From the NCBI GenBank assembly GCA_010093815.1, contig ML996591.1: DNA of 64,000 bases; one strand, 5' to 3'. The stretch is from Pseudovirgaria hyperparasitica. Taxonomy: Eukaryota. This document shows, piece after piece, positions 481-64,000 of the stretch. Position 1 is the stretch's first letter. Every line of letters begins with the position of its first letter. Under the pieces are notes generated by a model. That model ran no database searches. It was not told the DNA's origin and saw nothing but the letters and a program-made list of their open reading frames with translations. The position numbers were made by a program, and so were the translations under genes.

Positions 481-3354
481 TCACCCCTTAAGGTCTGCAA
501 GAGAATCCTTCAGCCGGTCCCAGCCATCTGTTCCTTCCCATGTATCCTTTCCTTTGCCCATGATACCCCTAATCGCACTCCGGGCCTTGAACTTCCAGTC
601 TTTTGCGACGAGCTCTCCATCTCCAGCGCCCAGGCCTTCAGTTCGATCCATCTCACCCAGACTTTGATAGGCATCGACCAAATCGATCGTAGCATCTACG
701 ACAGCATCCCATTGTTTCTCTTCGCTAAACTCCCAGCCAGGTTGACTGGTCACGCACCGCCATGCTTTTTCCTCTGCCTCGAGTGCTCGTGTCGGACGCT
801 TGCGCCAGAGCGCCAGCTTGGAGACAATCTTCCAGAGATGTGCCGACGACGTGATCAACGGGATGACTTTCTCGTCCACGAGTCTGACTACCATCCTCGC
901 GAGGCCCGGTTTGTTTGGGTCATAGCCCAGTCCTCCTTCCTCTTGATCTAGCGCAACGACGTGTCTGACGAGCATTTCAAGGATGGGCGCATCCACACAT
1001 TGCTCGCCAACTGACTTGCCGCGTATCTCGATGATTCGGCCCTGTGCTGTGACCATGTCGTTGTATGAGGGCGGGACAAGTGACGTAGCTACGATAAGCA
1101 CGTTCGCCCAGATCTTGTGGCTTTCGAACTTGAGGGTGGAGGCTCGTTTGAATGCTTTGAGTGCGTCACGGCGATGCTTCTGAGGATCGGACAATGCAGC
1201 TTGTGCAGAATGGTTGGCAGCATCTTCGCCTTCATCATCATCATCCAGTATAGTCGGAGGCATCCGCCTCTCGGTACCATCGGCAGTGACGTCGGGCTCG
1301 ACGTGGATCAAGGCAGCAGCAAGATTACTCCATGCCTCTGCGTCAGTGTCGTCGATTTGAACAGTACGAGAAAAGGCCTCTGCAGCTCTTACGTATTCCT
1401 GTAGTTCGAGAAGAGCGCACCCCATGGCAAACCAGGCGGACTGGTTGATCTGGTTAACCTTGAGCGACTGAGCATAGGCATGAGCAGCTTTTGTAAAGTC
1501 TCTGCCTGCGAAATAGTACTTTCCGAGCGAGCGCTGAGCACGAGCATAGCGGCTTCCAGAGACTTCCCAGGCTGTTTGGTACATGGCAGGGTCTTTGTCA
1601 ATGTCACCAATGATGCAATATAATCGTGGTGCATCAGAGGGTGGTGGAGATCTTGCCTTGCCTTCCCACTTCTCCGTATCTAGATCAGCACTCTCGTCGT
1701 CACCGCTAGTAGCATGGAAAAGCTGTCGTCGTACAACCATCTTAGCTTTGTCTTCGCGCTCTGTTGCGGCCCAGCATAAAGCTGCCTCGGCCCACATCTC
1801 GAGTCGCTCGTATATCTCGAGTGCAGACCTCAAGCCTCCCAGACTGACCCATCTTGAAGCAAGTTCTGCCTCCAGCTCCCATCTTGAGGGAGATGAGAGT
1901 TGGAAGACATACTTCAATCGCTCACTGACAGGAGCAGACTCGGACTCTTTAGCCCTCGGAAGAAAAGTCGAAGACGTGTTCTCTTTGACATCCGTGCTTT
2001 TCCCAGTGGTGGTCTCTGCAATGACTTGATCCACCAATACTTGTAATTGCAGCAGTCCTCGCTCGACGGTGCGTGATCTATAGCCCTCTACACGACTGCG
2101 CACGAGCAAGGCCTGTGTATATACCTGCCAATTCGAGCTCCCTCCCTCGAGTACACGAGTGGCGTATGGTAGAGTCTCTTCTCGCGTCAAGCCGTCTGCA
2201 GGAGACGTGTTCGTTATTGACGATGCAAGAGCAAGTAGGATGATGGAGTCGAAAGGGTCGAGTAGGGGTTGCTTCTCAGGGTCCAAATCTCTCAGGGCTT
2301 TCGGCAGAGATTCGTCACTGACAATATCAGTCATCGATGTCGGCTTCTTAGTAAACGAGATGGATTCCAGAAGGGTGTCGTCGTTGAGATCGAGGTTGTC
2401 TGGCCGCTTCGATGCTGTTGCTGCTGTTGCGTCTGTGCCATTTGCAGGCATCTCGGTCGAACTGCCACTTGGTAGACTTCTTGCGAGCACCACAAGCTGG
2501 CTCGTGTCTTTTTGCTGCCACTTTGTCCGCTTTCCGAGCAGTCCAGTAAGCGCAAACTCGAAGCCTCGTTCCTTAGTTGCGAGTTCCAGGTCTTCGCGAG
2601 CCAGCTTGTCCAGTCCATGATGGGTATGGATGGTGGCTTTCTCCAGCAAGAAAGCCACTCGTAATTCGTGTACACTGTTGACTGGCAAGGTGCCTAGTTG
2701 ATTCTCAAGCTCGTCGAGTCGCTCGAATATAGCTTTCTGCAGGGTAGGCGCGGGTTCTGACAGTAGCTTTTGGTGCCAAAAGTCTAGCCTCAAGCGCGCC
2801 CAAGGGAAGCTTTTTACATTCTGCGCAATGGGTGGGCATGACAAAATTGTTTTCGCCAGACAAAACAACTCTATGTTGGGCGTCAGGCGGTATGCAGCCT
2901 CTCCGTCGACAGAGAGCGAGGTTATAAGCTGCCGTCGAGTCCTTTCGACTTCAGACTTGGCTTTCTCATCTGCACTCGAAAGTAGGGTAAAGTCCAGTGG
3001 AGGACCAGTTACATTGCCTTGTAGAAAAGCACCAAACGCTGCAAGTCCAATGACGAAGTAAAGATGCTGCTGATATGCGGGGCTTTGCTCAATGCTGTCA
3101 GGAGGGGATTTCCTGTCTCCTAGAATGGCCTCGAGGCGGCATAGCACATAGTCACTCCAAAGTGGGAAATCCGATATCTGAATATCCTTCGTGTTGTCCT
3201 GTCCTCGAATGTCGCCAAGTAGCACCTTGGCGTGCTCGCTTTCGAGTAGTGTTTTGTAGTCGCCATTCTCCAGAGTTTCGAGATGCTTTTCAAGAGCGCC
3301 GCTTAGCTCTTCGGGCAGAGTTTGCCGTATATACTGTATTATGATATCAGCCAT
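481..3354 (-). CDS. EMW1: TPR-repeat protein, Emw1/TTC27 family
   Basis: Intronless ORF of about 957 aa from MADIIIQY (ATG at 3354). Family-like motifs are AFLQGNVTGP, LTGLLGKRTKWQQKDTSQLVV, NWQVYTQALLVRSRVE and RYARAQRSLG, followed by TPRs (AWFAMGCALLEL, EAWSNLAAAL). Confidence 0.85.
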   Translation of the reverse strand: MADIIIQYIRQTLPEELSGALEKHLETLENGDYKTLLESEHAKVLLGDIRGQDNTKDIQISDFPLWSDYVLCRLEAILGDRKSPPDSIEQSPAYQQHLYFVIGLAAFGAFLQGNVTGPPLDFTLLSSADEKAKSEVERTRRQLITSLSVDGEAAYRLTPNIELFCLAKTILSCPPIAQNVKSFPWARLRLDFWHQKLLSEPAPTLQKAIFERLDELENQLGTLPVNSVHELRVAFLLEKATIHTHHGLDKLAREDLELATKERGFEFALTGLLGKRTKWQQKDTSQLVVLARSLPSGSSTEMPANGTDATAATASKRPDNLDLNDDTLLESISFTKKPTSMTDIVSDESLPKALRDLDPEKQPLLDPFDSIILLALASSITNTSPADGLTREETLPYATRVLEGGSSNWQVYTQALLVRSRVEGYRSRTVERGLLQLQVLVDQVIAETTTGKSTDVKENTSSTFLPRAKESESAPVSERLKYVFQLSSPSRWELEAELASRWVSLGGLRSALEIYERLEMWAEAALCWAATEREDKAKMVVRRQLFHATSGDDESADLDTEKWEGKARSPPPSDAPRLYCIIGDIDKDPAMYQTAWEVSGSRYARAQRSLGKYYFAGRDFTKAAHAYAQSLKVNQINQSAWFAMGCALLELQEYVRAAEAFSRTVQIDDTDAEAWSNLAAALIHVEPDVTADGTERRMPPTILDDDDEGEDAANHSAQAALSDPQKHRRDALKAFKRASTLKFESHKIWANVLIVATSLVPPSYNDMVTAQGRIIEIRGKSVGEQCVDAPILEMLVRHVVALDQEEGGLGYDPNKPGLARMVVRLVDEKVIPLITSSAHLWKIVSKLALWRKRPTRALEAEEKAWRCVTSQPGWEFSEEKQWDAVVDATIDLVDAYQSLGEMDRTEGLGAGDGELVAKDWKFKARSAIRGIMGKGKDTWEGTDGWDRLKDSLADLKG

Positions 3355-4586: not shown

Positions 4587-5662
4587 TGTCTAGAATCTGC
4601 TACACTGGATATGTGTGATGTTGTTCGAAGTGGCCGTCGGTAGGGTGTATAGGTTACAGTGAGAGGATTGATAGAGATACTGGAGCTAGACGAGAGGGAA
4701 TGGTGAGACGGAGCGGGGGGAGGGGTGGCTAGAATAGCTCAGGGCTGAAGTGCTGGGTATATATATATGTATAGCTTACACCGTGGACAGTACACCGATG
4801 GTTTAGTCACGCTACCTGGCTAATTAGCTCATTCACATCCAGGCATGATGAGCTGCGGTGTTTGACGGTTCTGCGGTAAGACGGCAGCCTCAGGCTCTGA
4901 TCGACCTATGACGTGCAGCTGTTCGGGCCACTTTTTGCTGTTTCGGCCACACTCGCCCGAATTTGCGGCGTAGAGTGTGGCTGAGCGGCACTGAGCACAC
5001 GTGTCTTTCGGCTGTGCGCGACGGAGTGAATATACTTGTTATGGTTACTATAGCTATAGTAGTAGTAGTTCGCAACAGCTTTTGCGACCAGACGTAGAAT
5101 AGTCATCCAGTGTGGCAAACAGCATAAACACGTGACTGCAATGTACCTGAAGATCATGACGACCGCACCGCACCGCCTTGGACTGTTGGATACGAGATAC
5201 GAGAGCCCCTCCATGCACGTGATCTCCTCCATCCCGACCGAATTTGAATGTCCCTCCACGACCACTCTCCTAATCATCCAACATACCATCCATCTCGCGA
5301 AGCTCCTACTTATGCATTCAATTCAATGATGCACTCAACACTGACATCACTCATGGCGCTGTCTTAGTAGGATGCAGTCACTAATGAGATACCAAGACCA
5401 TGACACCAGGCACGTATCAGATTTCTGTCAGTCTAATCTAAGCATAACCAGACTCCTACTTCATTGTCTCGAGGTCTCATTAGATCAGCAGGAGCCAGTG
5501 TAGAGCTTCTGAGAAATGATAATATGCTACACAAATTCTCAAGTCCAGCTTGATAGACACCAGACTGCAAACATACCCTTGTCAGAAAACCATCTGACCT
5601 TTTCGGAGACAGGGCGCAAGTTCAAGGAACCTTGAAGTAGAGGAATCGACAGATGGAGAGAT

Positions 5663-42829: not shown

Positions 42830-43120
42830 GTATATACCGGTCTTCCGTGTTAGTATATAGTAGTACTTACTCGCTATTATAGACTATAGAGAATATAAAA
42901 TATAGAAGATAGAAGTATAAGAGAGTATTATACTACCGAACTACCTATAATAGACTATTATATAATATATAATAATACTATACTATTGTTTAGGTATAGA
43001 CTAGTAGACTCGTATAAATTTACGAGTAGAATATAGTAACTTAAGTAGAATTATATGTAAAAAATTAGTAGTAAAAGTAGTTATATTAAATACTAATCTA
43101 TACTATCTAAGATATATACT
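42830..43120. repeat. RIP-degraded AT-rich repeat remnant, unclassified
   Basis: Abrupt switch to TpA-rich, CpA/TpG-depleted sequence. Confidence 0.6.
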
Positions 43121-44757
43121 TATAATAATAATAATATTATATAACTAGGTAGAGTAGTACTCTATAGGCCTATGCCTCCTCTAGTCTAAGCTACTATGTA
43201 AGAAGAAACCCCATAGAGAAAAACTTCCTTATATCTATAACTACATCTCGTTAAGCCTCTATTTCGTCTTAAGTATATAGCTATAGGGTACGCCTATTAG
43301 CCTATAGCCTATATTACCGTTATTTTACCCTTAGGTAGCACGTATAGGTGCGGAGGTTATTAGTTAAGGGCTACCCTTAACTAATAATCGGGGTTCTCCC
43401 GGGGTTCTTCTGGTATATATCGGGTTACTACCGGCGTATGCCGGGTCTCTTCCGGTATATATTTCCGGGTCCACTAGAATTAGAGGAGTGGTAGATATAT
43501 AATTATCTACCGGGCGACGTCCTTTAGGAACTTATTAAGCTATCGTACGATATCGGAGGTTCTTATCGTATAGATAAGCTTCTACCTTTACGTGTGAAGA
43601 TCGGGGCATATTACGAGATAGTAGCGTATTATGCCTCTCCGGCCACACGCCTTATACTATAGAGACACGTCGGGGACGCCTCTCTTATAGAGGTAGTATA
43701 GAAGTCCTATAGCGCCCGTTCGGGCTTAGAGGAGTATAGATGCCTAGGCCTTTATAAGCCCTTTATATATCCATTTACTTAGCTCCTTCTATAGTCCTTA
43801 GATCCACTCTAGGTACCTATCCTACTAGAAGGCCCACTAGGCCCGGAGTGTCTCTTTCTACTTATCTTAGATCCACGACCGTATACTTCGTCCGAGCTCT
43901 CGAAGGCTCTATTAGTCTAGAAGGGTATCTAGGTTATCCTTAATCTCTTATACTACTTAGTTCGAGTCTATTTCTATCGGGCACTTATACTATAGTCGAG
44001 TCCGGCCTATATATAAGAGTACTTAGTAGTATACGCTAACTCGCGCGCGTAGCGCGGCGAAGGTATATTCTACTTTTCCTACACGTTCCTATGCTTATTA
44101 TTTAGTAAAGTATACCACTCTCTATATCTAGTAGAAGTTATATATGCTTATAACGTCTGTCTCGCGTCGTAGTAGCACCGTGTTAGTAGCTTTATATACG
44201 CCTAATATAAGACGGAGTATACGGTTCTATATAGATTCGAGCTTTATTCGCCTAGTCTATATAAGGGCCGTATACTAGCACTCGTATCCGTACATGAAGG
44301 CGGGTCGTGCTATAGATATATATAGTTAGCGTGCCTTATCCCGGGCGGTTCCCTATATAGAGGCTGTAATCCGTCGTATAGCGGCTTCTACCTAGAGGGC
44401 CCTAGAAACGGCGTATGCTACCTATAGTCCCCATTTAAGCTTATTATCGATCATGACGCCGAGTGCGCGTATACTTTATATCGGCGGTTCGTTAAAGGCG
44501 TCTATTCTAGGGCGTCGCTCGCCTTCCCTAGTAGCCCATTTCCCACGGCGGTTAATAAAGTACATGAGTTAGTACTTTTCGGGGGCGAACTTTACTCCGT
44601 GGCGCTTTACCCATTAGACGCATCTCCCGTGGTCTTATTTAAGTTATCTATATGTTTGGCTAGTGTTATTATCGATGGCTAGAAGGTATATATCGTCTGC
44701 GTACCCTACTACCTCTATGTGTTACATTCCCTAGAGGAGGTCTACAGTGAAGAAGAG
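43121..44757 (-). mobile_element. Tad-like LINE copy 1, 5'-truncated, RIP-mutated
   Basis: Reverse complement of the 3' 1.6 kb of copies 2 and 3, from the RT GYADD region (GGGTACGCAGACGAT on the minus strand near 44700) to the (TAT)n tail at 43121-43140. Confidence 0.9.
43357..43387. repeat. 31-bp palindrome (3' site of LINE copy 1)
   Basis: TTATTAGTTAAGGG-CTA-CCCTTAACTAATAA, with perfect 14-bp arms. Confidence 0.95.
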
Positions 44758-46201
44758 GCCTCCAGTTCGAAGTCGGATGACTCCTACAGGTTCGACGTGC
44801 CCTATACCATCAGGCCCTACTCCTGTTTTTGCCTTATCTCATCCCCTTTAGGCTTATACCTCCAGCTCTACTAGAAGAGGGGCACGACGCCTCTTCTAGC
44901 TAGGAAACTACGAGGTTTGCTCCTTAAACTCATGTTACTAGCGTGCGTGCCTAGCGACACGTTCTGTCTCTTCATAAATCGACACGCGCATCCGTTCTCT
45001 CGGGCCATATAGTAGTCTCCCCGGCCAGGACGTGATCCCGCCTACTTCTAGGTATACTAAAGGTTAGAGCCCATTAAAGGGGTGAGGTCCTTAGAGCCAG
45101 CAGTTACTACTATATACCACGCCCCGCCTTTAAGCATGGCTACTATCTAGTTTTGCGTTACCCATGAGGATCTCTCTACGATAGGCCGACCGTGTCTTAT
45201 AGGCGAGCATTCTTTAAGTCCTATACGTGTACACTCGCGTGACGCGCCTAGGCGACTTAAGTATCCTCTACCTACTAACCCGACTTATTTCCACTACTTT
45301 TTAATAGGTCTCTATAGCCGCCTCTTGCCTATGTCCGTGTACTATTATCTATGTATACTAGCGCCCTACCTCCCACGGTAGACTATGACATCTCTTATAC
45401 GCGGGAGCCGCTCTATCTATCCTAGACCTAAGCGGTATCCCGTATCGAGCGAAAGGTCTTAATAGAGTCGCGCTACTGGTGGTCGCGCTAGGCGTCTTAA
45501 TAAACGTAGTTTAACACTATAGGAGAGTTAGCCTTAACAAGTTCATCCGCAGTAGTTTGTAGTTGCCCTCGACGTGATTTCTCGCTAATCCTTACGCACC
45601 CAGAGCCATTTAAGCCTCGAGGTGTCCTATCGCGCTACTAGGACTTCCGCTTTCTCTACCCACATGGTAAGGTAGATTCAGGCCTGCTTTTAACACAGCA
45701 GTAGCGCGTTAGGTGGTTTTCTTATCCCGGTATCCTCGTGGACTCCTCTTAACGCGTTAATTAAGAATAGGATGGAAGTATATGCTATCCCAGCTGGTTT
45801 ATTACGGTGTGGTCCCTGTAGAGTAACGCGTCGCGAAAACTCTACAACTACCCACCTAGCGACGACGAGGTCGCCATTAACGCCGCTCCGAACCTCTTGC
45901 TACCTCCGAAGAGGCATTGCCCAGCTACGACGACGTGGACGCGGTTCGTGAGACTTCGCAGCCAGATATATACTTATAGAGATCGACTTTATAAAACAAG
46001 TTAATAGTACTAAATTAATTATATCTAGCTATACTATAACCTTTTATACTTTATTCTTATAGAATATAAAAGATATTATAGATGGATATTTAATAAGAAT
46101 AGATATAAAAAGGACATAGATAGAGCTATATAATCTATCTAAGTTATTTTATTTCGTATTCTTATAAACTATAATTCTCGTCTCCGGCCGTTATTATTAT
46201 T
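44758..46201 (+). other. RIP-mutated gene-like or repeat segment of unknown family ending in a short (TTA)n run
   Basis: Not homologous to the LINE copies. A plus frame reads protein-like with mostly TAA/TAG stops (..FKPRGVLSRY*DFRFLYPHGKVDSGLLLTQQ*RVRWFSYPGILVDSS..). The segment has an AT-rich end and TTATTATTATT at 46191-46201. Confidence 0.4.
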
Positions 46202-48598: not shown

Positions 48599-49469
48599 GG
48601 CTTATTGCTAACGGTAGCCTTCCACTTGTGAAGACTCGACGAATGCGGGACAGACAGCATATTTCCAATTCATGCTCTGCCGTTCCAAGGTATGCTTTAT
48701 AGCGGTCGGTCGACCACGACGGGATCTCGTAGCCGACCGTGGCGTCGACCTCGGGAAGGAATATCCATAGAGAAGGTCGTCCTCTAAGGTAACTTATCTT
48801 GATGGATTAATGCAGGGCCAGTCTAGGTACATCTACCTATCACCCAATCGCCTCCCACGTACGGCACTCGCTTCTACTACCCAGGGACCTGCCTAGCTAG
48901 GTAGGTAAGCACTGGGTAGCTTTCATGGTATACTATCAGGTAGCTATCATCCTAACGTCATGGAGGAGTTAGCTAAGATTACATGTAAGAAGTTAGATCT
49001 ACGTTAATAGATCTAAGAGTAGATATTATATAGGAAGAATATATTATTTCTTCTAAAGAATAGTATAAATTAATTGTTTCTAGTAGCTTACTTTATAATT
49101 TAATCTAAACTTTAACCTTTAATACTAATATTTATTAGATAAGATTTCTAAGATTAATAAATATTAAAATTAATAATAGAGAATCTATTTATTTATATAG
49201 TATTATATAAAAAACTTCTTTATACTCTAAGAGATAAAACTTCTTATACTCTAACGGACTAAACTAGTTAATTCGGGGTAAAACAGCGATTTACATACAT
49301 TAAACGATAGAGTACACCGAGTATAACAATCTCCGACATACATATATACGTATAGCGTATAATATACGACGATACTAATATATAGAGATACTATATATAT
49401 ACGCTTAAAGACTCTTTAATAATATAAGTATAGACTATATCTAATAAATACTAACACGCCGACCCCCTT

Positions 49470-49500
49470 TTATTAGTTAAGGGCTACCCTTAACTAATAA
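49470..49500. repeat. 31-bp palindrome (5' site of LINE copy 2)
   Basis: TTATTAGTTAAGGG-CTA-CCCTTAACTAATAA. Confidence 0.95.
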
Positions 49501-52500
49501 TTATAGCGGCCTTAGGCACTAATATACCCCGGCTTCTACCGGGTATACCCCTAATACTAGTATAGTAGAAACGGCTATATAGCGGTATATTCTAGAATAA
49601 TTAAACCCCCGTCTAATAAATAACGAATAACTAAGGGCGTATAATACTATAGATAATAGAGATAGAGGGGACTCTACCTAGAGAGACCCTCCCGGATAAG
49701 ATTAACTACTAGATAGTATATATAGAGAGGGAAGTTAAGAAGGGAGAAACGGCCCTACTTAGTATCTTCTAGAACCTTATCCGGAATATTAGAGAGCTTA
49801 CCGTAGGAGTAAAATAGGCGCTAGAATTAGACCCGGAATCTAGACTAGATCGTATAGAGGCCAGTCTATAGAGGATCTAGGAGGGCCTTACCTAGGGAAA
49901 ACGCCCTAGTACGTGGGTATAGATCGCCGCACCTATAAACGGAATAGCTATATTAGCTAAAATACTAAGGGCACCTATAGACGGGGTATATAGTATATAA
50001 GTTACTATCTAGAATAAAGAAGTACTCGTATAAGTCTAGTAAGCGTCCCTAAAGGATATTATAAATAAGATTAATAAATAGAAAGGGATATAGTTAAATA
50101 TAGTAGCCGCTAAACTCACCCTAGAAGGTATAGTACTAACTACTACTACTAATACAGCCTAGTAGACTATCTCGCGTAACCCAAACGTAATTAATAATAT
50201 CTTCCCTAGCGCGTCCGTCCGCGTAACCACGTATCTAATATAGATATATACTATCTCTATCCGAGAATACATTATTAGAGAAGATAATATTAAGTAAATA
50301 GAGTAATCTAACGAACCAAAGTACCCTAGAATTAAGATCGCGAAGGCGTGGTGGAAGAACGTCTAAGGGATTAAGATAAAATTAAAAAAGTACTCTACTA
50401 TAATAGTAGAGCTTAGGGACCCTACTCTCGTCTATAGAATAACATAGAAGGGCTTCCTAGCTAAAGGAGAGCTACTTACGGCGGAACTATAGAATAGAGC
50501 ATAGATAATAACGTAATACTTTAACTATTAGAGATATAGATATACTAGATAGAGGTACTCTTAGAAGACCGCCTATAGGTAGTATAAATAGGGCTATAAT
50601 ACTAAGGCATGCCCTTATAAGACGCAGAGCGATAAGACGCGAGATAGGGATACCGCTAAGTACTCTAACTACGACGGGAAATACCTATTCTAGTTAGTAA
50701 CGTATACGAAACGTAAGTAGGTCGTAGAATATATTAACGTGATAAAGATAAGAGGAGTAAGGTAGATATACTAAGCTATAAGGCCCTCGCTACCCTCGCC
50801 GCTATCCCTAACTTTACTTATAAATCTAGTAATTACCCCCTAAAGGGGAGAGGATAACGTGTAATAGTATACTATATAGAGAAAGATAGGCCGACCCTAG
50901 GGTATACTTAAAGCCGCTACCGCGCGAGGATAATCACGCCTTAGCGCCACTAATATATAGACTTAAACTTTCCCTAGCACCTAATAAGGGTATAAGATAT
51001 ACTTATTATTATATAGGTAAACGTATAATATAAATAAGAAAACTAAGTAACGCTTCTAGAAGAAATAGGAGCCGTAATAATAGCTATCTAGGAACTATAT
51101 AAATACTACTAAACTAATAAGCTAATAATATACCTAGGATACTATACTATCCACCCCATAGGCCCGGATAGAAGAGTTATATTTTATATATATAAGTCGA
51201 TCCCGCTCTTAGAATAGTCTTATACCGAATATAATAACCTCTAGATAATACTATATCTCTAGATAAGTATAGGGCCTATCTACATCTATAATATCTATAA
51301 TTAATAGTAATTACTTATACTAGACGATATACTAGAGGGCACCACGACGCCGGGATAATATATCCTCCTAGGTAACTTTAATCTCTACTATAGATAGTAG
51401 GGAGGCCTAGCCGTCGTAAGAGAAGAACTTAGAGTAAGGGAACTATATATACGGTACCATGACTTTCTATACCTCCTTATACCTATAGGGTAGATTACCT
51501 AGAGAAAATATAAATAGAATAAGGACGGGTCTACGCTCGACCTTACCCTTACTACTAAGTACATTAGCTATAGAGTATAGTACTACCGCCCGAGCCGGAT
51601 ATAGACGGACTCCGACTACGAATATATAGAAACCATAATAGACGTCTCTACTCTTAATAAATAACGTAGAAAATAGCTATAGAAGGATACTAATTAGGAT
51701 AAATACCTAGAGGACCTAGAATCGGCGATTCTAGACCCCTCTATAGTCGACGTATCTAACGGCCTAGCTATAGATAAGGCCGTATAAGTCCTCCTTTAAG
51801 TATACTAAGCCACGAGAGATAAATACGTGCTATACTAAATATATAGACCTCTAGAAGCAAGGGGTATACCTTAAATACGAGAGTATAGAAGAGACGCCCG
51901 TAGACTATATATATATATATACTATATCCGGACGACTAAGGCGTGGGAAGAGTAGAAGAAAGTAGTACGATATCGTAATAGGGCCCTCTATAATAAATAA
52001 CGAAAGTAATAGCGTATAATTACCGATAAATATATATAGTAAGCCGTAGAGCTATAGCGTATAGTAAAGTAGGCTAAGGGTATAGACGCGCCGATACCGC
52101 CGCTACTAATGCCTCCCCTAATATACTAAGAGAGAATATACTCTATAAGTCTAGAGAAGATGGAGATCTTACGTAAAGTTATATTCCCCCTCCCGGAGCT
52201 AGTAGACCTATTAGATATTAATAATACTAAATATCTAGATATAATTAATATCCCCTAAGAGGTTATCGAGGAGAATATACTTAACGCCGTTAAAGTACTC
52301 CTAAATAATAAGGTACCTAGACCGGATAGGATACCGAATAGGTGCCTTAAACGTACTATACTAGCTACCCTACCACTTATTAGTTATATATTTTAAGTAT
52401 ATATTAAGAACGGATACTACCTCTAAAGCTTCCGGGCTATCTATACTATTATACTTCTAAAACTAGGGAAGAACTCTAACTCCCTAAAAGAATGGAGGCT

Positions 52501-54279
52501 AATTACCCTCCTCTTCTATCTTAGGAAGATACTAGAGACTATAATTACGAAGAAGATAAGCGCCGTAGTATAGAAATATAACCTCCTCCTAGTAAACTAG
52601 AAGGCGAAGGCTAGAAGCTCTCTAATTACTACTATCTAATATATTCTCGAAGTTATCTAGACCGTATAGAAGTAGGGACGTATAGTAACGCTACTCTCTC
52701 TTAACATGGCCGGCGCATTCGATAAAGTAAACCATATAAGACTTATCTATAACTTATAGAAGAGGCGTATACCCGCGTAGATTACGTGGTTTATATAGTC
52801 CTTCCTTACTAAAAGAGTTACCTAGATATATATCTCTAGATATCGAAGTAAGTATAAGAAGACGGCTTACGGCATCCTATAAGGAAGTACTATCTCCCTA
52901 ATTCTATTTCTCTTCTTTACTATAGACCTTCTCTAGAGAATATAACGTATAGAGGTAGTAGGGTACGTAGATAATATATACCTTCTAGCTATTAATAATA
53001 ATACTAGCTAAATATATAGATAACTCGAATAAGACTACGGGAGATATATCTAATAGGTAAAGCGCTATAGAGTAAAGTTCGCCCCTAAAAAGTACTAACT
53101 TATATACTTTATTAACTACTATAGGAAATAGACTACTAGGGAAGGTAAGCGATACTCTAGAATAGACGCCTTTAACGAACCGCCGATATAAAGTATACAC
53201 GTACTTAGCGTTATAATTAATAATAAGCTTAAATAGAGACCATAGGTAGTATATACCGTTTCTAGGGCCCTCTAGATAGAAGCCGCTATATAATAGATTA
53301 TAGCCTCTACGTGGGGAACCGCCTAGGATAAGGCACGCTAGCTATATATATCTATAGTATAACCCGCCTTTACGTACGGACACGAGTACTAGTATACGGC
53401 CCTTATATAGACTAGGCGAATAAAGCTCGAATCTATATAGGACCGTATACTCCGTCTTATATTAGGCGTATATAAAGCTACTAACACGGTACTACTACGA
53501 CGCGAGATAGACGTTATAAGTATATATAACTTCTACTAGATATAGAGGGTAGTATACTTTACTAAATAATAAGCATAGAAATATATAGGAAATATAGAAT
53601 ATACCTTCGCCGTACTACGTATACGAGTTAGTGTATACTACTAAGTACTCTTATATATAGGCCGGACTCGACTATAGTATAAGTACCTAATAGAAATAGA
53701 CTTAAACTAAGTAGTATAAGAGATTAAGGATAACCTAGATACCCTTCTAGACTAATAGAGCCTTTAAGAGCTCAGACAAAGCATACAGTCATAGATCTAA
53801 GATAAGTAGAAAGAGATACTCCGGGCCTAGTAGGCCTTCTAGTAGAATAGATATCTAGAGTAGATCTAAGAACTATAGAAGGAGCCGAGTAAATAGATAT
53901 ATAAAGGGCTTATAAAGGCCTAGGTATCTATACTTCTCTAAGCCCGAACGGGCGCTATAGAACTTCTATACTACCTCTATAAGAGAGGCGTCCCTAATAT
54001 ATCTCTATAGTATAAGGCGTGCGGCCGGAGAGGTATAATACGCTACTATCTTATAATATACCCCGATCTTTATACGTAAAGGTAGAAGCTTATCTATATA
54101 ATAAGAACCTCCGATATCGTACGATAGCTTAATAAGTACTCTAAGGATATTACCCGGTAGATAATTATATACCTACTACTCCTCTAATTCTAGTAGACCT
54201 AGAAATATATACTAGAAGAGACCCGGTATACGCTAGTAGTAACCCGATATATACCGGAAGAACCCCGGGAGAACTCCGA

Positions 54280-54310
54280 TTATTAGTTAAGAGTAGCCCT
54301 TAACTAATAA
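54280..54310. repeat. 31-bp palindrome (3' site of LINE copy 2)
   Basis: TTATTAGTTAAGAG-TAG-CCCTTAACTAATAA (one G>A change). Confidence 0.93.
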
Positions 54311-56131
54311 CCTCTATACCTATATATACTACCTAAGGGTAAAATAATAGTAATATAGACTATAGGCTAATAGGCGTACTCTATAGCTATATACTTAAGA
54401 CGAAATAGAGGTTTAATAAGATATAGTTATAGATATAAGGAAGTTTTTCCCTATAGGGTTTCTTCTTATATAATAGCTTAGACTAGAGGAGGCATAGGCC
54501 TATAGAGTACTACTCTACCTAGTTATATAATATTATTATTATTATACTCTAAGAGACTAAACTAGTTAATTTAGAGTAATATAGAGATCTATATATATTA
54601 ATTAATAGAGTATACTAAGTATAATAACCTCTAATATATATATATATATATAGTATATAGAATATAATAATACTAATATATAGAGATACTATATATATAT
54701 ACTTAATAACTCTTTAAAGATATAAGTATAGACTATAATAAATTACTAGCTAGAGCCATAGAAGGATACATAGACTCTAGCACGAGTAGCGTAAGAGGTA
54801 GTATAGTATATAGAAGAGGTGCCTATAATATAATAGGTAGCCTTAGGTAGTAACCTAAGGCTAAGATAGATACCTATAGGAAGAACTAATTATAGATACT
54901 TAGAATAGGTATTCTAAGTAATCTATATAGTAATTAGAAATAGAATATTAGTATTCTAAGTAATATACTAAATACTTAGAATAAGTATTTTAATTAGAGG
55001 ACCTTAGTAGAACTATATAGACCCTTTAGACCTAATCTCTAGAGATAGTTCTATAGTAATTAATTTAAACTTATACTAATATAATTACTACTTTACTTAC
55101 CTACTAGCTAGTTACTATTTATACTCTATTAATACTTACTATAAATCTACTTATACTCCTCTAAGTCTTCTAAGTACCTTTATCTTAAGGAAAGCTAGAA
55201 TACTCTATATAACGGACTACTTAAGGGATAGACCGTATCCTTATCTAGGAAGGTTTATTATAGTTTAATTACTCTACTTAGACTCTAAAATAAGTATTTA
55301 CGCTATCTATTTAAATGTAAAATAGTAAATAATAGATAATTCTTATCTTTGCGAACTACTCTATAAGTACTAACTATAGAGTAAGTTAGATATCTTATTA
55401 CTAAACTAGGGGAGTAAGTTATAGAGCTCTAGAGAGAAAACGTTAAACTTAGAAAAGCTAAAGAGAGCTTTAAAAGAAAAATCCTAGAATCTTTTAAAGG
55501 TAAGCGAAGTAAACTCTAAGGATTTCTAATATAGATTAGAATATACCTTTAGACCTATTAAATTTAGAACCTAGAAGAATAAGTTATATTTACCGCTAGA
55601 CTACTAAAGAGAGACGTACTCGCGTAGTTCGAGCCTTACTTAAGGGACTTTATAGAAAATAATCCGTAGAATTAATAGAATAATACTACTAAGATCTTTA
55701 AACATTTTAAAGAATTTAAGGAATATATTAAAACGATCTTTAGAGATATAGATAAATAAAGAATAGCTAAGAGACGAATCTAGTAAATAGTCTAGATAAA
55801 ATCTATATCTAACTACGCCTCTAAATTCTAATAAATCTCTAGTTAGCTAGAATAGAATAATAAACCTCTAATTCTCTAGTTCTATACTAGATTATATAGA
55901 ACTTCTCACACCCTAACGGACTAAACTAGTTAATTCGGGGCAAAACAGCGATTTATATACATTAAACGATAGAGTATACCGAGTATAATAACCTCCGATA
56001 TACGTATATACGTATAGTATATAATACGCGATAATACTAACGTGTAGAGATACTATATATATACGCTTAAAGATTCTTCGATAATATAAGTATAGACTAT
56101 ATCTAATAAACGCCGACACGCTAACCCCCTT

Positions 56132-56162
56132 TTATTAGTTAAGGGCTACCCTTAACTAATAA
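56132..56162. repeat. 31-bp palindrome (5' site of LINE copy 3)
   Basis: TTATTAGTTAAGGG-CTA-CCCTTAACTAATAA. Confidence 0.95.
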
Positions 56163-59100
56163 TTATAGCGGCCTTAGGCACCGACGTACCCTAGCTTCTA
56201 CTAGGTATACCCCTAATACTAGTACGGTAGAAACGGCTATATAGCGGTATATCCTAGAATGATTAAACCCCCGTCTAATAAACGACGAATAACTAAGGGT
56301 ATATAACGCTATAGATAATAGAGATAGAGGGGACCCTACCCGGGGAGACCCTCCCGGATAAGATTAACTACTAGATAGTACGTATAGAGAGGGAAGTTAA
56401 GAAGGGAGAAACGGCCCTTCTTAGTATCTTCCGGAACCTTATCTAGAATATTAGAGAGCTTACCGTAGGAGTAAAATAGACGCCGGAATTAGACCTAGAA
56501 TCTAGACTAGATTATATAGAGGCTAGCCTATAGAGAATCTAGGAGGGCCTTACCTAGGGAAAACGCCCTAGCACGTAGGTATAGGTCGCCGCACCTATAA
56601 ACGGAATAGCTATATTAGCTAAAATACTAAGGGCACCTACGGACGGGGTATATAGTATATAAGTCGCTATCTAGAATAAAGAAGTACTTATATAAGTCTA
56701 GTAAGCGTCCCTAAAGGATATTATAAATAAGATTAATAAATAGAAAGGGATATAGTTAAATATAGTAGCCGCTAAACTTACTCTAGAAGATATAGTACTA
56801 ACTACTACTACTAATACGGCCTAGTAGACTATCTCGCGCGACCTAAACGCGATTAATAATATCTTCCCTAGCGCGTCCGTCCGTGTAACCACGTACCTAA
56901 TATAGATATATACCGTCTCCGTCTAAGGACACGTTATTAGAGAAGATAATATTAAGTAAATAGAGTAATCTAATAAACCGAAGTACCCCGGGATTAAGAT
57001 CGTAAAGGTGTAGTAGAAGAACGTCTAAGGGATTAAGATAAAATTAAAAAAGTACTCTACTATAATAGTAGAGCTTAGAGACCCCGCTCTCGCCTATAGA
57101 ATAATATAGGAGAGCTTTCTAGCTAAAGGAGAGCTACTTATAGTAGAACTATAGGATAGGGTATAGATAATAACGTAATACTTTAACTATTAGGGATATA
57201 GATATACTAGGTAGAGATACTCTTAGAAGACCGCCTATAGGTAGTATAAATAGGGCTATAATACTAAGGAATACCCTTATAAGACGTAGAGCGACGAGAC
57301 GCGAGATAGGGATACTACTAAGTACTCTAACTACGACGGGAAACATCTATTCTAGTTAATAACATATACGAAATATAAGTAGGTCGTAGAATATATTAAC
57401 GCGATAAAGATAAGAGAAGTAAGGTAGATATACTAAGCTATAAGGCCCTCGCTACCCTCGCCGCTATCCCTAACTTTACTTATAAATCTAGTAACTACCC
57501 CCCGAAGGGGAGAGGATAACGTATAATAGTATACTATATAGAGAAAGATAGGCCGACCCTAGGGTATACTTAAAGCCGCTACCGCGCGAGAATAATCACG
57601 CCTTAGCGCCACTAATATATAGACTCGAACTTTCCCTAGCACCTAATAAGGGTATAAGATATACTTATTATTATATAGGCGAACGTATAATATAAACGAG
57701 AAAACTAAGCGACGCTTCTAGAAGAAATAGGAGCTATAATAATAGCTATCTAGGAACTATATAAACACTACTAAACTAACAAGCTAATAATATACCTAGG
57801 ATACTATACTATCTACCCTACGGGCCCGGATAGGAGAGTTATATTTTATATATATAAGTTAATCCCGCTCTTAGAATAGTCTTATACCGAACGTAATAAC
57901 CTCTAGATAACGCTATATCTCTAGATAAGTATAGAGCCTATCTATATCTATAATATCTATAATTAATAGTAATCGCTTACGCTAGATAATATACTAGAGA
58001 GTACCACGACGCCGGGATAATATATCCTTCTAGGCGACTTTAATCTCTACCATAGATAGTAGGGAGGCCTAGCTATCGCGAGAGAAGAACTTAGAGTAAG
58101 GGAACTATATATATAGTACTATAACTTTCTATACCTTCTTATACCTATAGGGTAGATTACCTAGAGGAAATATAAATAGGACGAGGATAGGTCTACGCTC
58201 AACCTTACCCTCGCTACCGAGTATATTAGCTATAGAGTATAGTACTACCGCCCGAGCCGGATATAGACGGACTCCGACTATAAATATATAGAAACTATAA
58301 TAGACGTCTCTACTCTTAACGAATAACGTAGAAAATAGCTATAGAAGAATACTAATTAGAATAAATATCTAGAGGACCTAGAATCGGCGATTCTAGACCC
58401 CTCTATAGTCGACGTATCTAACGGTCTAGCTATAGATAAGGCCGTGTAAGTCCTCCTTTAAGTATACTAAGCTATAAGAGATAAACACGTGCTATACTAA
58501 ATATATAGACCCCTAGAAGCGAGGGGTATACCTTAAATACGAGAGTATAGAAGAGACGCCTATAGACTATATATACGTATATACTATATCCGGACGACCG
58601 AGGCGTAGGAAGAGTAGAAGAAAGTAGTATAATATCGTAATAGGGCCCTCTATAATAAATAACGAAAGTAATAGTATATAATTACTAATAAATATATACG
58701 GTAAGCCGTAGGGCTATAGCGTATAGTAAAGTAGGCTAAGGGTATAGACGCGCTGATACCGCCGCTACTAATGCCTCCCCTAATATACTAAGAGAGAATA
58801 TACTCTATAAGTCTAGAGAAGATGGAGATCTTACGTAAAGTTATATTCCCCCTCCCGGAGCTAGTAGACCTATTAGATATTAATAATACTAAATATCTAG
58901 ATATAATTAATATCCCCTAAGAGGTTACCGAGGAGAATATACTCGATACTATTAAAGTACTCCCGAATAATAAGGCATCCGGACTAGATAGAATACTAAA
59001 TAGATACCTTAAATATACTATACTAGCTACCCTACCGCTTATTAGTTATATATTTTAAGTATATATTAAGAATAGATACTACCCCTAAAGCTTCCGGGCT

Positions 59101-60941
59101 ATCTATACTATTATACTCCCGAAACTAGAGAAGAACTCTAACTCCCCAAAAGGATAGAGACTAATTACCCTCCTCTTCTATCTTAGAAAGATACTAGAGA
59201 CCACGATCGCGAAGAAGATAAGCGCCGTAGTATAGAAATATAACCTCCTTCTAGTAAACTAGAAGGCGAAGGCTAGAAGCTCTCTAATTACCGCTATCTA
59301 ATATATTCTTAAAGTTATCTAGACCGTATAGAAGTAGGGACGTATAGTAACGCTACTCTCCCTTAATATAGCCGGCGTATTCGATAAAGTAAACTACACG
59401 AGACTTATCTATAACTTATGGAAGAGGCGTATACCCGCGTAGATTACGCGGTTTATATAGTCCTTCCTCGCCAAAAGAGTTATCTAGATATATATCTCTA
59501 GATATTAAAGTAAGTACGAGAAGACGGCTTACGGTATTCTATAAGGAAGTACTATCTCCCTAATCCTATTTCTCTTCTTTACTATAGACCTTCTCTAGAG
59601 AATATAATATATAGAGGTAGTAGAGTACGTAGACGATATATACCTTCTAGCTATTAATAATAATACTAGCTAAATATATAGACGACTTAAATAAGACCAC
59701 GGGAGATGCGTCTAATAGATAAAGCGCTATAGAGTAAAGTTCACCCCCGAAAAGTACTAACTCATATACTTTATTAACTACTATAGGAAATAGACTACTA
59801 GGGAAGGCGAGTAATACTCTAGAATAGACGCCTTCGACGAACCGCCGATATAAAGTATATATATACTCGGCGTTATAATCGATAATAAGCTTAAATAGGG
59901 ACCATAGGTAGTATATACCGTTTCTAGGGCCCTCTAGATAGAAGCCGCTATATAATAGATTATAGCCTCTACGTAGGGAACCGCCCGGGATAAGGTACGC
60001 TAGCTATATATATCTATAGTACGACCCGCCTTTACGTACGGACACGAGTACTAGTATATAGCCCTTATATAGACTAGGCGAATAAAGCTTAAATCTATAT
60101 AGAACCGTATACTCCGTCTTATATTAGATATATATAAAGCTACTAATACGGTACTACTACGACGCGAGATAGATATTATAAGTATATATAACTTCTACTA
60201 GATATAGAGGGTGGTATACTTTACTAAATAATAAGTATAGGAACGTATAGAAAATATAGAATATACCTTCGCCGCGCTACGCGCGTAAGTTAGTATATAC
60301 TACTAAGTACTCTTATATATAGGCTAGACTTAACTACGGTATAAGTACCCGATAGAAATAGACTTAAACTAAGTAATATAAGAGATTAAGGATAACCTAG
60401 ATACCCTTCTAGACTAATAGAGTCTTTAAAAGCTTAAATAAAGTATATAGTTATAGATCTAAGATAAGTAGAAAGAGATACTCCGGGCCTAGTAGGCCTC
60501 CTAGTAGAATAGATATCTAGAGTAGATCCGAGAACCATAGAAGGAGCCGAGTAAATAGATATATAAAGGGCTTATAAAGGCCTAGATATCTATACTCCTC
60601 TAAGCCCGAACGGACGCTATAGAACTTCTATACTACCTCTATAAGAGAGGCGTCTCTAATATATCTCTATAGTATAAGGTGTGCGGCCGGAGAGGTATAA
60701 TACGTTACTATCTTATAATATACCCTAATCTTTACACGTAAAGGTAGAAGCTTATCTATATAATAAGAACCTCTAATATCGTATAATAGCTTAATAAGTA
60801 CCCTAAGAACGTCGCCCGGTAGATAATTATACACCTACTACTTCTCTAATTCTAGTAGACCTAGAAATATATATTAGAAGAGACCCGGTATACGCCGGTA
60901 GTAACCTAATATATACTAGAAGAACCCCGGGAGAACCCCGA

Positions 60942-60972
60942 TTATTAGTTAAGGGCAGCCCTTAACTAATAA
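60942..60972. repeat. 31-bp palindrome (3' site of LINE copy 3)
   Basis: TTATTAGTTAAGGG-CAG-CCCTTAACTAATAA. Confidence 0.95.
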
Positions 60973-61192
60973 CCTCCGTATCTATACGTACTACCTAAGG
61001 GTAAAATAATAGTAATATAGGCTATAGGCTAATAGGTATACTCTATAGCTATATACTTAAGACGAAATAGAGGTTTAACAAGATATAGTTATAGATATAA
61101 GGAAGTTTTTCCCTATAGGGTTTCTTCTTATATAATAGCTTAGACTAGAGGAGGCATAGGCCTATAGAGTACTACTCTACCTAGTTATATAA

Positions 61193-61223
<31 letters not shown>

Positions 61224-64000
61224 CTAGATTATATAATAATATTAAGGACGAAATCTCTAGAGAGAGAGAGACCGTTCTACCAACCTCTAGAAGTATATTA
61301 AGCTTATAGTCTAGATTAATAACTAACTATATAAGAGACGCTATAAGAAAAGAGGGAAGAAGGTCTTTTAACCCGTACTTAAATAAGATATAAGGAAGGG
61401 CTATATTAATAAAGCCCTAAACTACTTATATAAGGGATTCTATAATAGACCTATACCTATAGAACTTAGCACCTTATAGATAAAACATCTATCTAATAAA
61501 GAAAAGGAGTAACTAAAGAAGGAAGGTAAGTATCTCTACTATAAGGAAAAGGGACACTATATACGTGAATACCTAAAAAATAAGAATAAGAAAAATTAGA
61601 TTAAAGACCCGGTACTAAGATAAGGGAACTTCGCCGTAGAAAAGGAAGAAGTACCTTATATAGCTATGTTATAGACTAGTTATACTAATAATCTCTATTT
61701 TATATATAAGTTAGAGAAAGATAGTATAGATTAGTATCTAAAGAAAAGAAACGTCTTAATAGCTAGTAAATAACCCCTATCGCTTTATAAAAAAGTAGAA
61801 CTATAGAAACACTTAGAAGTAATAAGAAGACCTAAACTAACTAAAGAAATAGTACCTAAAGAAGTAATAATTAAAGAAAGTACTATAGAAGAGGATAGTA
61901 AGAAAGAAACCCTTACTATAGAGGAACTATATAATAAGTTAATAATAATATAAGACCCTATTACTTACTATATTATCTATTACTATAGAAAGTATATAGA
62001 TAAGAATAATAGAGACCCACCTAGAAGAGGCGTAGAAATCTAATTAGAAGATAACTAACTTATTTCACTCTATTACGAGGAACACGGTAAGACTTTCTAG
62101 GTTACTTATATCTATAATAACTATCTTCGCCACCTCTATAAGAAGTAAACCTAGAAATAGTTTCTATAACGGTATTAAAACCAAGTAATCCTAAAAGCCT
62201 TTAGAGACAAAGATATATAATAAAAACGAAATTTGCCCGGAGAACCAATACACCCAATGCCCGGACGTTACGTACCAAACTTATTTAATATCCAAGGCTA
62301 TTATATGGTATAACCTTCGAGTAGACTTAGATAAAATTAAGAAATAAGTTTAATCTATAATCTAACTTATATAAGAAATAGAATAAGAACTTAGTAAGCT
62401 ACGAAAAAACTAGGAAGGCCGGATATACTAAGAGAAATAGCTAAGCTAAAAAAAAAATCTCTCGTATCTATTAGTAGCTTAGATAATAAAACACGAATAT
62501 CTCTTAAAATTTAGCTCTATTAAAAATACTCTATTAAGGTACTAATTAATAGCGGAGTATAGTCTAATTTTATCTCTCTAACTATAGTAGATAAACTAAA
62601 AATACCCTATAATAGTAAAGAAGAACTATATAAACTATCCACGTTCAAAGGACTCAATATAGAATATACTAATAGAATAGTATACTTAGAAATAGAACCT
62701 CTGGATTTAGTCTTAATAGTAGGACACTAATAATTACGACTAGATATAGCGGAACTAGAATAATATAACTTAATCCTAGAAATACTATAGCTCGAAGAAG
62801 TTAACCCTACAATTAACTAGAAAACTAAGAAAATTATACCCTAGAGAACATTAAGACCCTTAGAAACTATTAAAGAAGAAGTAGAGATTAATAAACCTAT
62901 AAAGGCGCTAATAACTAGAAAGTCTATCTACTATATTCGGAAGCTTAACGATAAGTAAGGTAATATAAAGAGTAGACCCTTATATAAGAAATACGTAGTA
63001 TAATAAGGCACGCCTATAGATAAATAGATTTAAAAAATAAATAACGTACTTATACTAAAGGAATACTACTAATACTATATTATCTTTAAAGAAGAACTTA
63101 AGACGGGATTACTAAAGTATAGCCTATATAATTATATAATAATACTCTAACTAGAAATAGCACCTATATTTAAAAGTATATACTAACTTACCGAAAAATA
63201 ACTAGAGATAATATAATAATATATTAAGAAAATAGAAGTAAAGGGATATATCCGACCCTCTAAATTACCTATAGAATATCTAATACTCTTTATACTAAAA
63301 AAAAGATAGGAGCGAACGACCCTATATAGACTATTAATACTTAAATAATATTACTATTAAAAATAGATACCCTTTACCCTAAATTAATAAATTATAGAAC
63401 TAACTCGTAGAAGCTTAGTACTTTACTATAATAGACTTATAAGGAGCCTATAACCTTATATATATAGTAGAAGGAGATAAATAGAAAATAGCTTTTTAGA
63501 CTTAATACGGCTACTATAAATATCTAGTAATACTATTTAGGCTAACTAATATACTAGCTATATTCTAAGTACTAATTAATAATATACTAAGAGAATATCT
63601 CGACTACTTTATAATAGTCTACCTAGACGATATATTAATTTATTTAAGAAACCTATTAGAGTATAGAGAATACGTATATAAGGTACTTTAGAAATTACGG
63701 ATAGTAAATCTACTAGTAGAGTTAAAGAAGAGTATCTTCTATATATAGAAAGTTATATTTTTAGAATTTAAGATTATATCTAGAGAAATATAAATAGACC
63801 TAAAGAAAATTAAGACTATTAAAAACTAGAAGTAACCTAAGATAGTTAAGGAAATCTAAGGATTTACCGGATTCACGAACTTTTATAGAAAATTTATATA
63901 TAACTATTCTATAAAAACGGCTCTACTATATAAGCTTATAAAGAAAAATATAATATTTAAATAAGGACTAAAGTAAGAATAAGTATTTTAATAGTTAAAA

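Follow-up and report, generated by a model that had tools for sequence, protein, structure and literature searches.

The window analysed here, a 64,000-nucleotide stretch of contig ML996591.1 of Pseudovirgaria hyperparasitica (GCA_010093815.1), was found to carry five copies of a 31-bp palindrome, and the evidence supports this palindrome as a built-in, conserved cis element of a long interspersed nuclear element (LINE). It has a fixed position and is conserved across 28 full-length LINE copies, in line with an earlier sequence-only reading which had assigned it to the structure of the LINE. Identical letters occur in the LINE (two sites) and in an unrelated Gypsy element (two exact sites and one degenerate), as a trans-acting host factor would impose. 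We tentatively favour the reading, drawn from sequence comparison, that the palindrome is a paired site for a host basic leucine zipper (bZIP) activator which was passed between retroelements by template switching.

All five window sites previously described, at 43357, 49470, 54280, 56132 and 60942, were found, four as exact matches and that at 54280 with one mismatch, and they lie within a region marked by repeat-induced point mutation (RIP). No sixth site was found in the window with up to six mismatches allowed. The sites and the LINE copies that carry them, with their open reading frames (ORFs), are as follows.

43357..43387, minus strand: 3' palindrome of the 5'-truncated LINE copy.
49470..49500, plus strand: RIP-damaged palindrome with T at the centre, at the 5' site of LINE copy 1.
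54280..54310, plus strand: palindrome with A at the centre and one extra G>A, at the 3' site of LINE copy 1; the ORF2-frame stop is formed by site positions 5-7.
56132..56162, plus strand: palindrome with T at the centre, at the 5' site of LINE copy 2.
60942..60972, plus strand: palindrome with A at the centre, at the 3' site of LINE copy 2.
43121..44757, minus strand: 3' part of a 5'-truncated LINE, 1.6 kb, with tail.
49235..54545, plus strand: LINE copy 1, full-length and RIP-mutated, with ORF1 and an ORF2 for endonuclease and reverse transcriptase (RT); TAT tail at 54531-54545; 15-bp target-site duplication (TSD) at 49220 and 54542.
54546..54745, plus strand: leftover 5' end of an older LINE copy, the target of the copy 1 insertion, ending before its own 5' site.
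55899..61222, plus strand: LINE copy 2, full-length and RIP-mutated; TAT tail at 61193-61222; 16-bp TSD at 55883 and 61220.

Genome-wide, 591 matches to the central 21 bases of the palindrome were obtained with at most one mismatch, compared with 0 for a reversed control. Distinct sites read with both flanks numbered 147, namely 55 LINE 3' sites, 45 LINE 5' sites, 34 and 11 copies of the two exact Gypsy sites and 2 singletons, and the palindrome occurs in seven contexts in total. The state before RIP was sought genome-wide for each TA step of the arm. At the two outer steps neither CA nor TG was matched anywhere (0 in all cases); at the third step, C was present at position 9 in 35 matches at 28 places, 7 of which have both arms unmutated. 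As such copies exist, the original form is seen directly: it reads TTATTAGTCAAGGGC-W-GCCCTTGACTAATAA, with 15-bp arms (unmutated arm TTATTAGTCAAGGG) round a single central A or T. RIP, in the form of CA/TG to TA changes, had altered the arms, as the sequence-only reading stated; the arm it had guessed, TTGTCAGTTGAGGG, is wrong, finding no match at the outer steps. The asymmetric 3-nt core which it described turned out to be largely a product of RIP, which converted CTG to CTA and CAG to TAG; orientation thus rests on one base lying between a complementary C and G. Only A or T was seen at this centre in all 147 sites, the outcome expected when a palindrome is inverted or mirror-copied.

The host element was best characterised from an unmutated relative (C52 in G000, locus L113), in which ORF1 shows a weak CCHC-knuckle match (E 0.044) and ORF2 encodes an endonuclease and RT (RVT_1, E 3e-33; Exo_endo_phos_2, E 1e-13). 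The endonuclease and RT in ORF2, a simple-repeat tail, TSDs of variable length and 5' truncations identify it as a non-long-terminal-repeat (non-LTR) retrotransposon. A similarity search with ORF1 gave 1 match, and no ORF2-related loci were found in viral contigs. As previously described, the 5' site lies near the start of the element (~232 bp in), the 3' site lies 220 bp before the (TAT)n tail, and the two flank the coding region; in L113 the ORF1 ATG comes 2 nt past the 5' site, and the 3' site contains the TAG that stops the ORF2 frame. The site at 43357 is likewise real, although it proved to be the 3' site of a 5'-truncated, chimeric copy.

Variation among LINE copies was assessed in 28 full-length copies (29 were found and 1 left out), a set biased towards copies resembling those of the window. 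The centres of the 5' and 3' sites are T/A in 15 copies, A/A in 4 and T/T in 1, and the left arm of the 3' site is deleted in 8/28. The inverted arrangement of the pair thus holds for 15/28 copies, including both in the window, and fails as a general rule. A common 33-bp deletion removing the 3' left arm was found in 24 LINE copies, and in 7 LINE copies the 5' site has two uncompensated mismatches and folds no better than shuffled sequences. The claim that the flanks share no further homology did not hold, since the 15-mer CCCGGCATACGCCGG closely follows the 5' site and also closely precedes the 3' site (in L113 at approximately 5606-5620 and 1205-1219, minus strand). Repeats of the CCCGG-ATA type resembling CCCGGCATACGCCGG precede the extra ORF of the Gypsy element described below.

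Several further features of the LINE were observed. Compared with the window copies, the unmutated near-full-length copies C52 (L113, ~1426) and C39 (L109, ~6715) both show a gap of ~290 bp close to the ORF2 end. LINE copies adjoin the 5' end of another LINE in the window (49220-49234 and 54542-54745) and at L011/L033 and L016/L034; the TSD in the window indicates that copy 1 went into the 5' end of an older LINE, and together these cases suggest that the LINE may prefer its own 5' ends as a target. Copy 2 is inserted into a heavily RIP-mutated LTR-type element (54750-55890 and 61236-64000; gag/pol-like by eye).

Conservation of the letters was tested on a tree of the 28 full-length copies, using transversions only. 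The 60 arm columns required 2 steps compared with 7.1 expected (P=0.027) and the 2 centre columns 3 steps compared with 0.24 expected (P=0.002). Compensatory changes in the arms, which the sequence-only reading had proposed as a check, were absent from stem pairs 2-14 in the 147 sites, and no covariation was detected between the 5' and 3' centres of the 28 full-length copies. Symmetric extensions of the palindrome are present in three contexts, and the bases flanking the loop remain complementary (CWG or AWT). When single-copy changes are set aside as decay, 12 lineage-level changes remain: at positions 1, 2, 3, 14, 15 and 17 of the third Gypsy site, at 3, 15 and 17 of the singleton C19, at 11 and 23 in one LINE subfamily and at 10 in the LINE 3' site.

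Outside LINEs, where the sequence-only reading had suggested looking, the palindrome was found three times in an unrelated LTR element of ~11.4 kb with 379-bp LTRs and a pol read out as Gypsy. Two exact sites are ~7.3 kb apart and a degenerate third lies ~500 bp past the 5' LTR (14 copies), while the LTRs hold no site. An extra ORF follows pol (L044 5343-8333, G000:C1; at least 40 copies), and its relatives are PhyH-type 2-oxoglutarate-Fe(II) (2OG-Fe(II)) dioxygenases; no relatives of the dioxygenase family were found in viral contigs. The last Gypsy site overlaps the stop of this ORF, and the LINE and Gypsy ORFs that end within a site both finish P-D-Y-stop. The two other Gypsy sites are in the frame with the fewest shared stops (16 compared with 45 and 37 in 11 copies; 10 compared with 39 and 45 in 10/11 copies) and apparently lie in-frame inside coding sequence, so that location within or outside ORFs seems immaterial.

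Of the two singletons, the unmutated C47 (L110/L111, G000:C47:11013) has 21 bp of LINE 5' flank and the site joined to an antisense piece of a second Gypsy family, 2.4 kb long and without LTRs, which is followed by an ankyrin-like ORF. The junction looks like one made at a 9-nt match to the arm. A genome-wide pattern pairing the LINE 5' flank with any downstream flank other than ORF1 matched C47 alone; it misses junctions with A at +1 or +3. The other singleton, C19, is the variant TTGTTAGTCAAGGG-ATT-CCCTTGACTAATAA, which retains 27-28 of 31 letters, or 26 when set against the C52 variant; identity in its flanks is 43-49%, about the shuffled mean (46%). Its downstream flank weakly resembles the LINE 3' untranslated region (UTR), with 0 and 3 of 300 shuffles reaching the score, and no such similarity is seen upstream. 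A host gene with a weak chromodomain and Reb1-like Myb repeats (L157 1673-4330, G000:C19; best relative 33% identical) lies 770 bp upstream of the C19 palindrome, and it was considered as the binding factor on account of proximity, its sole support.

Chimeric structure was also seen at the truncated LINE copy of the window, which is joined to a further repeat.

44758..45960, minus strand: repeat X, joined to the truncated LINE copy and unrelated to the LINE; far end approximate.

Repeat X has a fixed end at five loci with five different LINE junctions, located 54, 117, 214, 638 and 1388 nt before the right arm (window; L107 ~6221; L090/L114; L091; L156), and the fusions resemble template-switch chimeras of the U6-L1 type. 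In the window, the chimera is flanked by short AT-rich, RIP-marked stretches (42840-43120 and 45960-46200).

An insert of 31 bp in unique DNA should be spared by RIP. Exact unmutated half-sites gave 48 matches, comprising the 35 with C at position 9 and 13 new ones. Nine of the latter were read: 7 belong to the LINE or Gypsy element, one is the C19 variant and one is a lone half-site within unique DNA. The other 4 were put to Gypsy by distance only. No complete palindrome was found alone in unique DNA, with 1/48 half-site matches there compared with 2 for the control, and no common flanking duplication was detected round the palindrome. The absence of free copies in unique DNA indicates that it is not like a miniature inverted-repeat transposable element (MITE), an identity rejected for want of a TSD and of dispersed independent insertions.

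Searches beyond the assembly returned 4 palindrome-bearing sequencing runs from 2 studies, with no RNA run among those listed, and their contigs held an identical unmutated copy and otherwise mostly RIP-type differences. There were 0 palindrome matches in viral contigs and 0 in prokaryote genomes, and the single metagenome match, a repeat that looks bacterial and differs in the outer arms, was regarded as unrelated. Three loci gave 0 matches to Rfam families at gathering score. No description of the palindrome was found in literature listings, whose coverage lies outside Repbase, Dfam and subscription journals. A role of CTAAT as splice acceptor was rejected, as by eye no consistent AG follows the site across contexts.

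The letters are conserved without covariation in the stem, in unrelated elements and within or outside ORFs, which fits recognition by a trans-acting factor; the "dimeric protein operator" offered among the options of the sequence-only reading fits best of those options. Each arm carries one Yap1/AP-1-type word, TTAGTCA (positions 4-10) or TGACTAA (22-28), the two facing each other across an 11-bp spacer. Yap1 is described as binding TGACTAA, TTAGTCA and TTACTAA, the last being its genome-wide consensus (PMC6545440). In the unmutated LINE, Yap1-type words were found only within its two sites; in the window no intact pair of the 7-mers is left. Each lineage retains at least one Yap1-type element per site, including the 24 deletion copies, and the change at position 23 in one LINE subfamily (7 copies) turns TGACTAA into TTACTAA. 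Of the 12 lineage-level changes, 10 spare both 7-mers (P=0.03; P=0.08 with the shared 15/17 change counted once; post hoc). Acting at the level of DNA, these words could recruit a dimeric host bZIP activator, which would tie transcription of the LINE and Gypsy elements to stress. One ancestral hairpin may have been copied between retroelement RNAs by template switching of reverse transcriptase at short homologies, a spread suggested by the restriction to retroelements, the C47 junction and the five X-LINE chimeras with their fixed X end. Mirror-copying would preserve the symmetry and flip the centre, host-factor binding would keep the letters identical in unrelated elements, and RIP would then destroy the elements in nearly all copies. 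A wider proposal built on the same sequences, a cross-class transposon regulon in which LINE and LTR elements share a self-symmetrising 31-bp module that is traded during reverse transcription, wired to one host stress regulator and silenced by RIP through its recognition words, is possible but doubtful.

A number of observations weigh against the activator site. The 7-mer match is post hoc and short motifs are common among fungal factors; a factor site also requires neither a symmetric spacer nor sites at 3' ends. Constraint may reach beyond the palindrome itself, as the 20 bp adjoining it upstream of the 5' site and downstream of the 3' site are just as invariant. Single-copy changes strike the 7-mer cores as well, and A10G disrupts the left 7-mer in 18 of 55 LINE 3' sites. 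The symmetric extensions and central flips show stem formation or mirror-copying, which would fit RNA or neutral models too.

Among such models, the main rival is an RNA pairing element. Such an element, whose 14-bp stem and 3-nt loop would open into a 31-bp duplex linking two genomic RNAs or the ends of one RNA, seems rather unlikely. Every site lies in a transcribed part and none in the Gypsy LTR, the hairpin z is about -6, and the palindrome is, by computation only, a self-complementary stem-loop capable of an extended duplex, with -53.6 kcal/mol for the 5'/3' duplex compared with two hairpins of -18. The complementary bases flanking the loop would matter in an intermolecular duplex and not in a hairpin. 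The variants A10G and A3G give G-U pairs on the sense strand, but a sense-strand bias was not supported (2 variants for, 3 against). Covariation is lacking both in the stem and between the 5' and 3' centres, and of the 24 copies without a 3' left arm, 6 full-length ones also have a 5' site that folds like shuffled sequence; these natural losses argue against a strict need for pairing at the LINE 3' site. Pairing alone also leaves the identity between LINE and Gypsy unexplained, and dimerisation is not known for LINE RNAs. Recognition of a 3' stem-loop by the LINE's own RT, suggested by a hairpin in the 3' region and by the 3' stem-loops of stringent LINEs (PMC3747384), is highly improbable. 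The copies lacking the 3' left arm and the 7 with two uncompensated 5' mismatches weaken this earlier proposal; the palindrome is found in Gypsy and at the LINE 5' end as well, its 3' copy is separated from the tail by 220 nt, and it has none of the pattern of variable stem and conserved loop given for stringent LINEs in that source.

The palindrome could instead be a passenger with no function: a very small hairpin which was picked up through template switching on a few occasions, symmetrised by mirror-copying and multiplied with its hosts. We consider this unlikely. The central flips and context-specific symmetric extensions do show a copying process, subfamilies with damaged sites still spread, and the shared P-D-Y-stop endings and the probable 9-nt arm match at C47 point the same way. 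Mirror-copying should, however, fix paired changes in the arms, of which stem pairs 2-14 hold none, and a remnant as distant as C19 has kept its letters while its flanks have not; five retroelement places with no free copy in unique DNA also speak against a passenger. The Gypsy element, with its PhyH-type ORF and three sites, might encode the binding protein itself, with VANC-like anti-silencing possibly tied to the dioxygenase and borrowed by the LINE, and sequence-specific anti-silencing encoded by transposable elements exists in plants (PMC5735166). This is very unlikely, given that neither the C-terminal 449 codons nor a wider read-through showed a DNA-binding domain (0 Pfam families) and that VANC targets are tandem repeats, unlike two to three isolated palindromes. 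PhyH, the family of the relatives of the extra ORF, is not known as a TET/JBP or AlkB family. There is scarcely any likelihood that the palindromes are site-specific recombination sites which excise, invert or swap the ORF cassette, a reading suggested by their pairing, the flips of the central base and the single cross-element junction at C47. It is largely refuted: none of the 147 sites shows excision or inversion of the cassette, a UTR swap or an exchange of flanks between LINE and Gypsy, no Gypsy deletion between the two exact sites was seen among the same read sites, and no recombinase domain was seen in the LINE or Gypsy, the two elements searched. The lack of recombinants and of covariation, together with the 24 copies lacking the 3' left arm, weighs against both a recombinase site and an indispensable RT stem-loop.

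The activation of fungal LINE and LTR elements, and the swapping of non-coding control parts between unrelated elements, are poorly charted. The palindrome is short, with unmutated copies and natural variants (the left-arm deletion, the TTACTAA change, the AWT core and the central flips) through which factor binding and RNA pairing can be told apart directly. A shared activator site would explain how two classes are co-activated by one signal; if neutral, the palindrome would clearly exemplify the passage of sequence between LINE and Gypsy RNAs.

Compared with known systems, the palindrome is short, has inverted repeats and reaches a high copy number like MITEs, but its copy number comes from its host retroelements. 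Tyrosine-recombinase sites of the loxP/FRT type have two inverted arms round a directional 8-bp spacer. The palindrome also has two inverted arms round a centre; this centre is one base instead of an asymmetric spacer of 6-8 bp, its orientation differs between subfamilies, and the loxP/FRT-like architecture of the sequence-only reading was abandoned. The dimer-linkage hairpin of Ty1 SL1 (PAL1-PAL2) has a matching architecture of stem, 3-nt loop (UCU) and possible extended intermolecular duplex, although the Ty1 PALs are described as 6-7 nt long, single, in the 5' UTR and element-specific (PMC6844567), whereas the palindrome is 31 nt long, repeated and common to LINE and Gypsy. With Yap1/AP-1 elements (YRE/ARE) it shares one such 7-mer per arm, shifted to TTACTAA in one subfamily; known YREs are single promoter 7-mers (PMC6545440), while the perfect 31-bp palindrome holds a fixed pair of putative ones and occurs at the 3' ends of elements and within ORFs as well.

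Closest among the cases described is the extended Conserved Hairpin Site (CHS) common to GalEa Copia families of one species, the CHS being a short conserved inverted repeat in fungal Copia elements (PMC5445492). The GalEa CHS abuts the 5' LTR, replaces the primer-binding site, starts with CTGATCAGT/CTAATTAGT and has a fixed A/A mismatch. The palindrome was rejected as a GalEa CHS, as its nearest Gypsy site is ~500 bp inside, its hosts are a LINE and a Gypsy element, and it has no CTGATCAGT/CTAATTAGT with an A/A mismatch. Unlike the CHS, it lies internally in two to three copies per element, its arms are perfect, and it is found on both sides of the divide between LINE and LTR elements. The extended CHS (33-62 bp) is nevertheless common to distant families within one species (PMC5445492), as is the palindrome, and the palindrome may be regarded as a variant of a shared retroelement cis element with a putative function.

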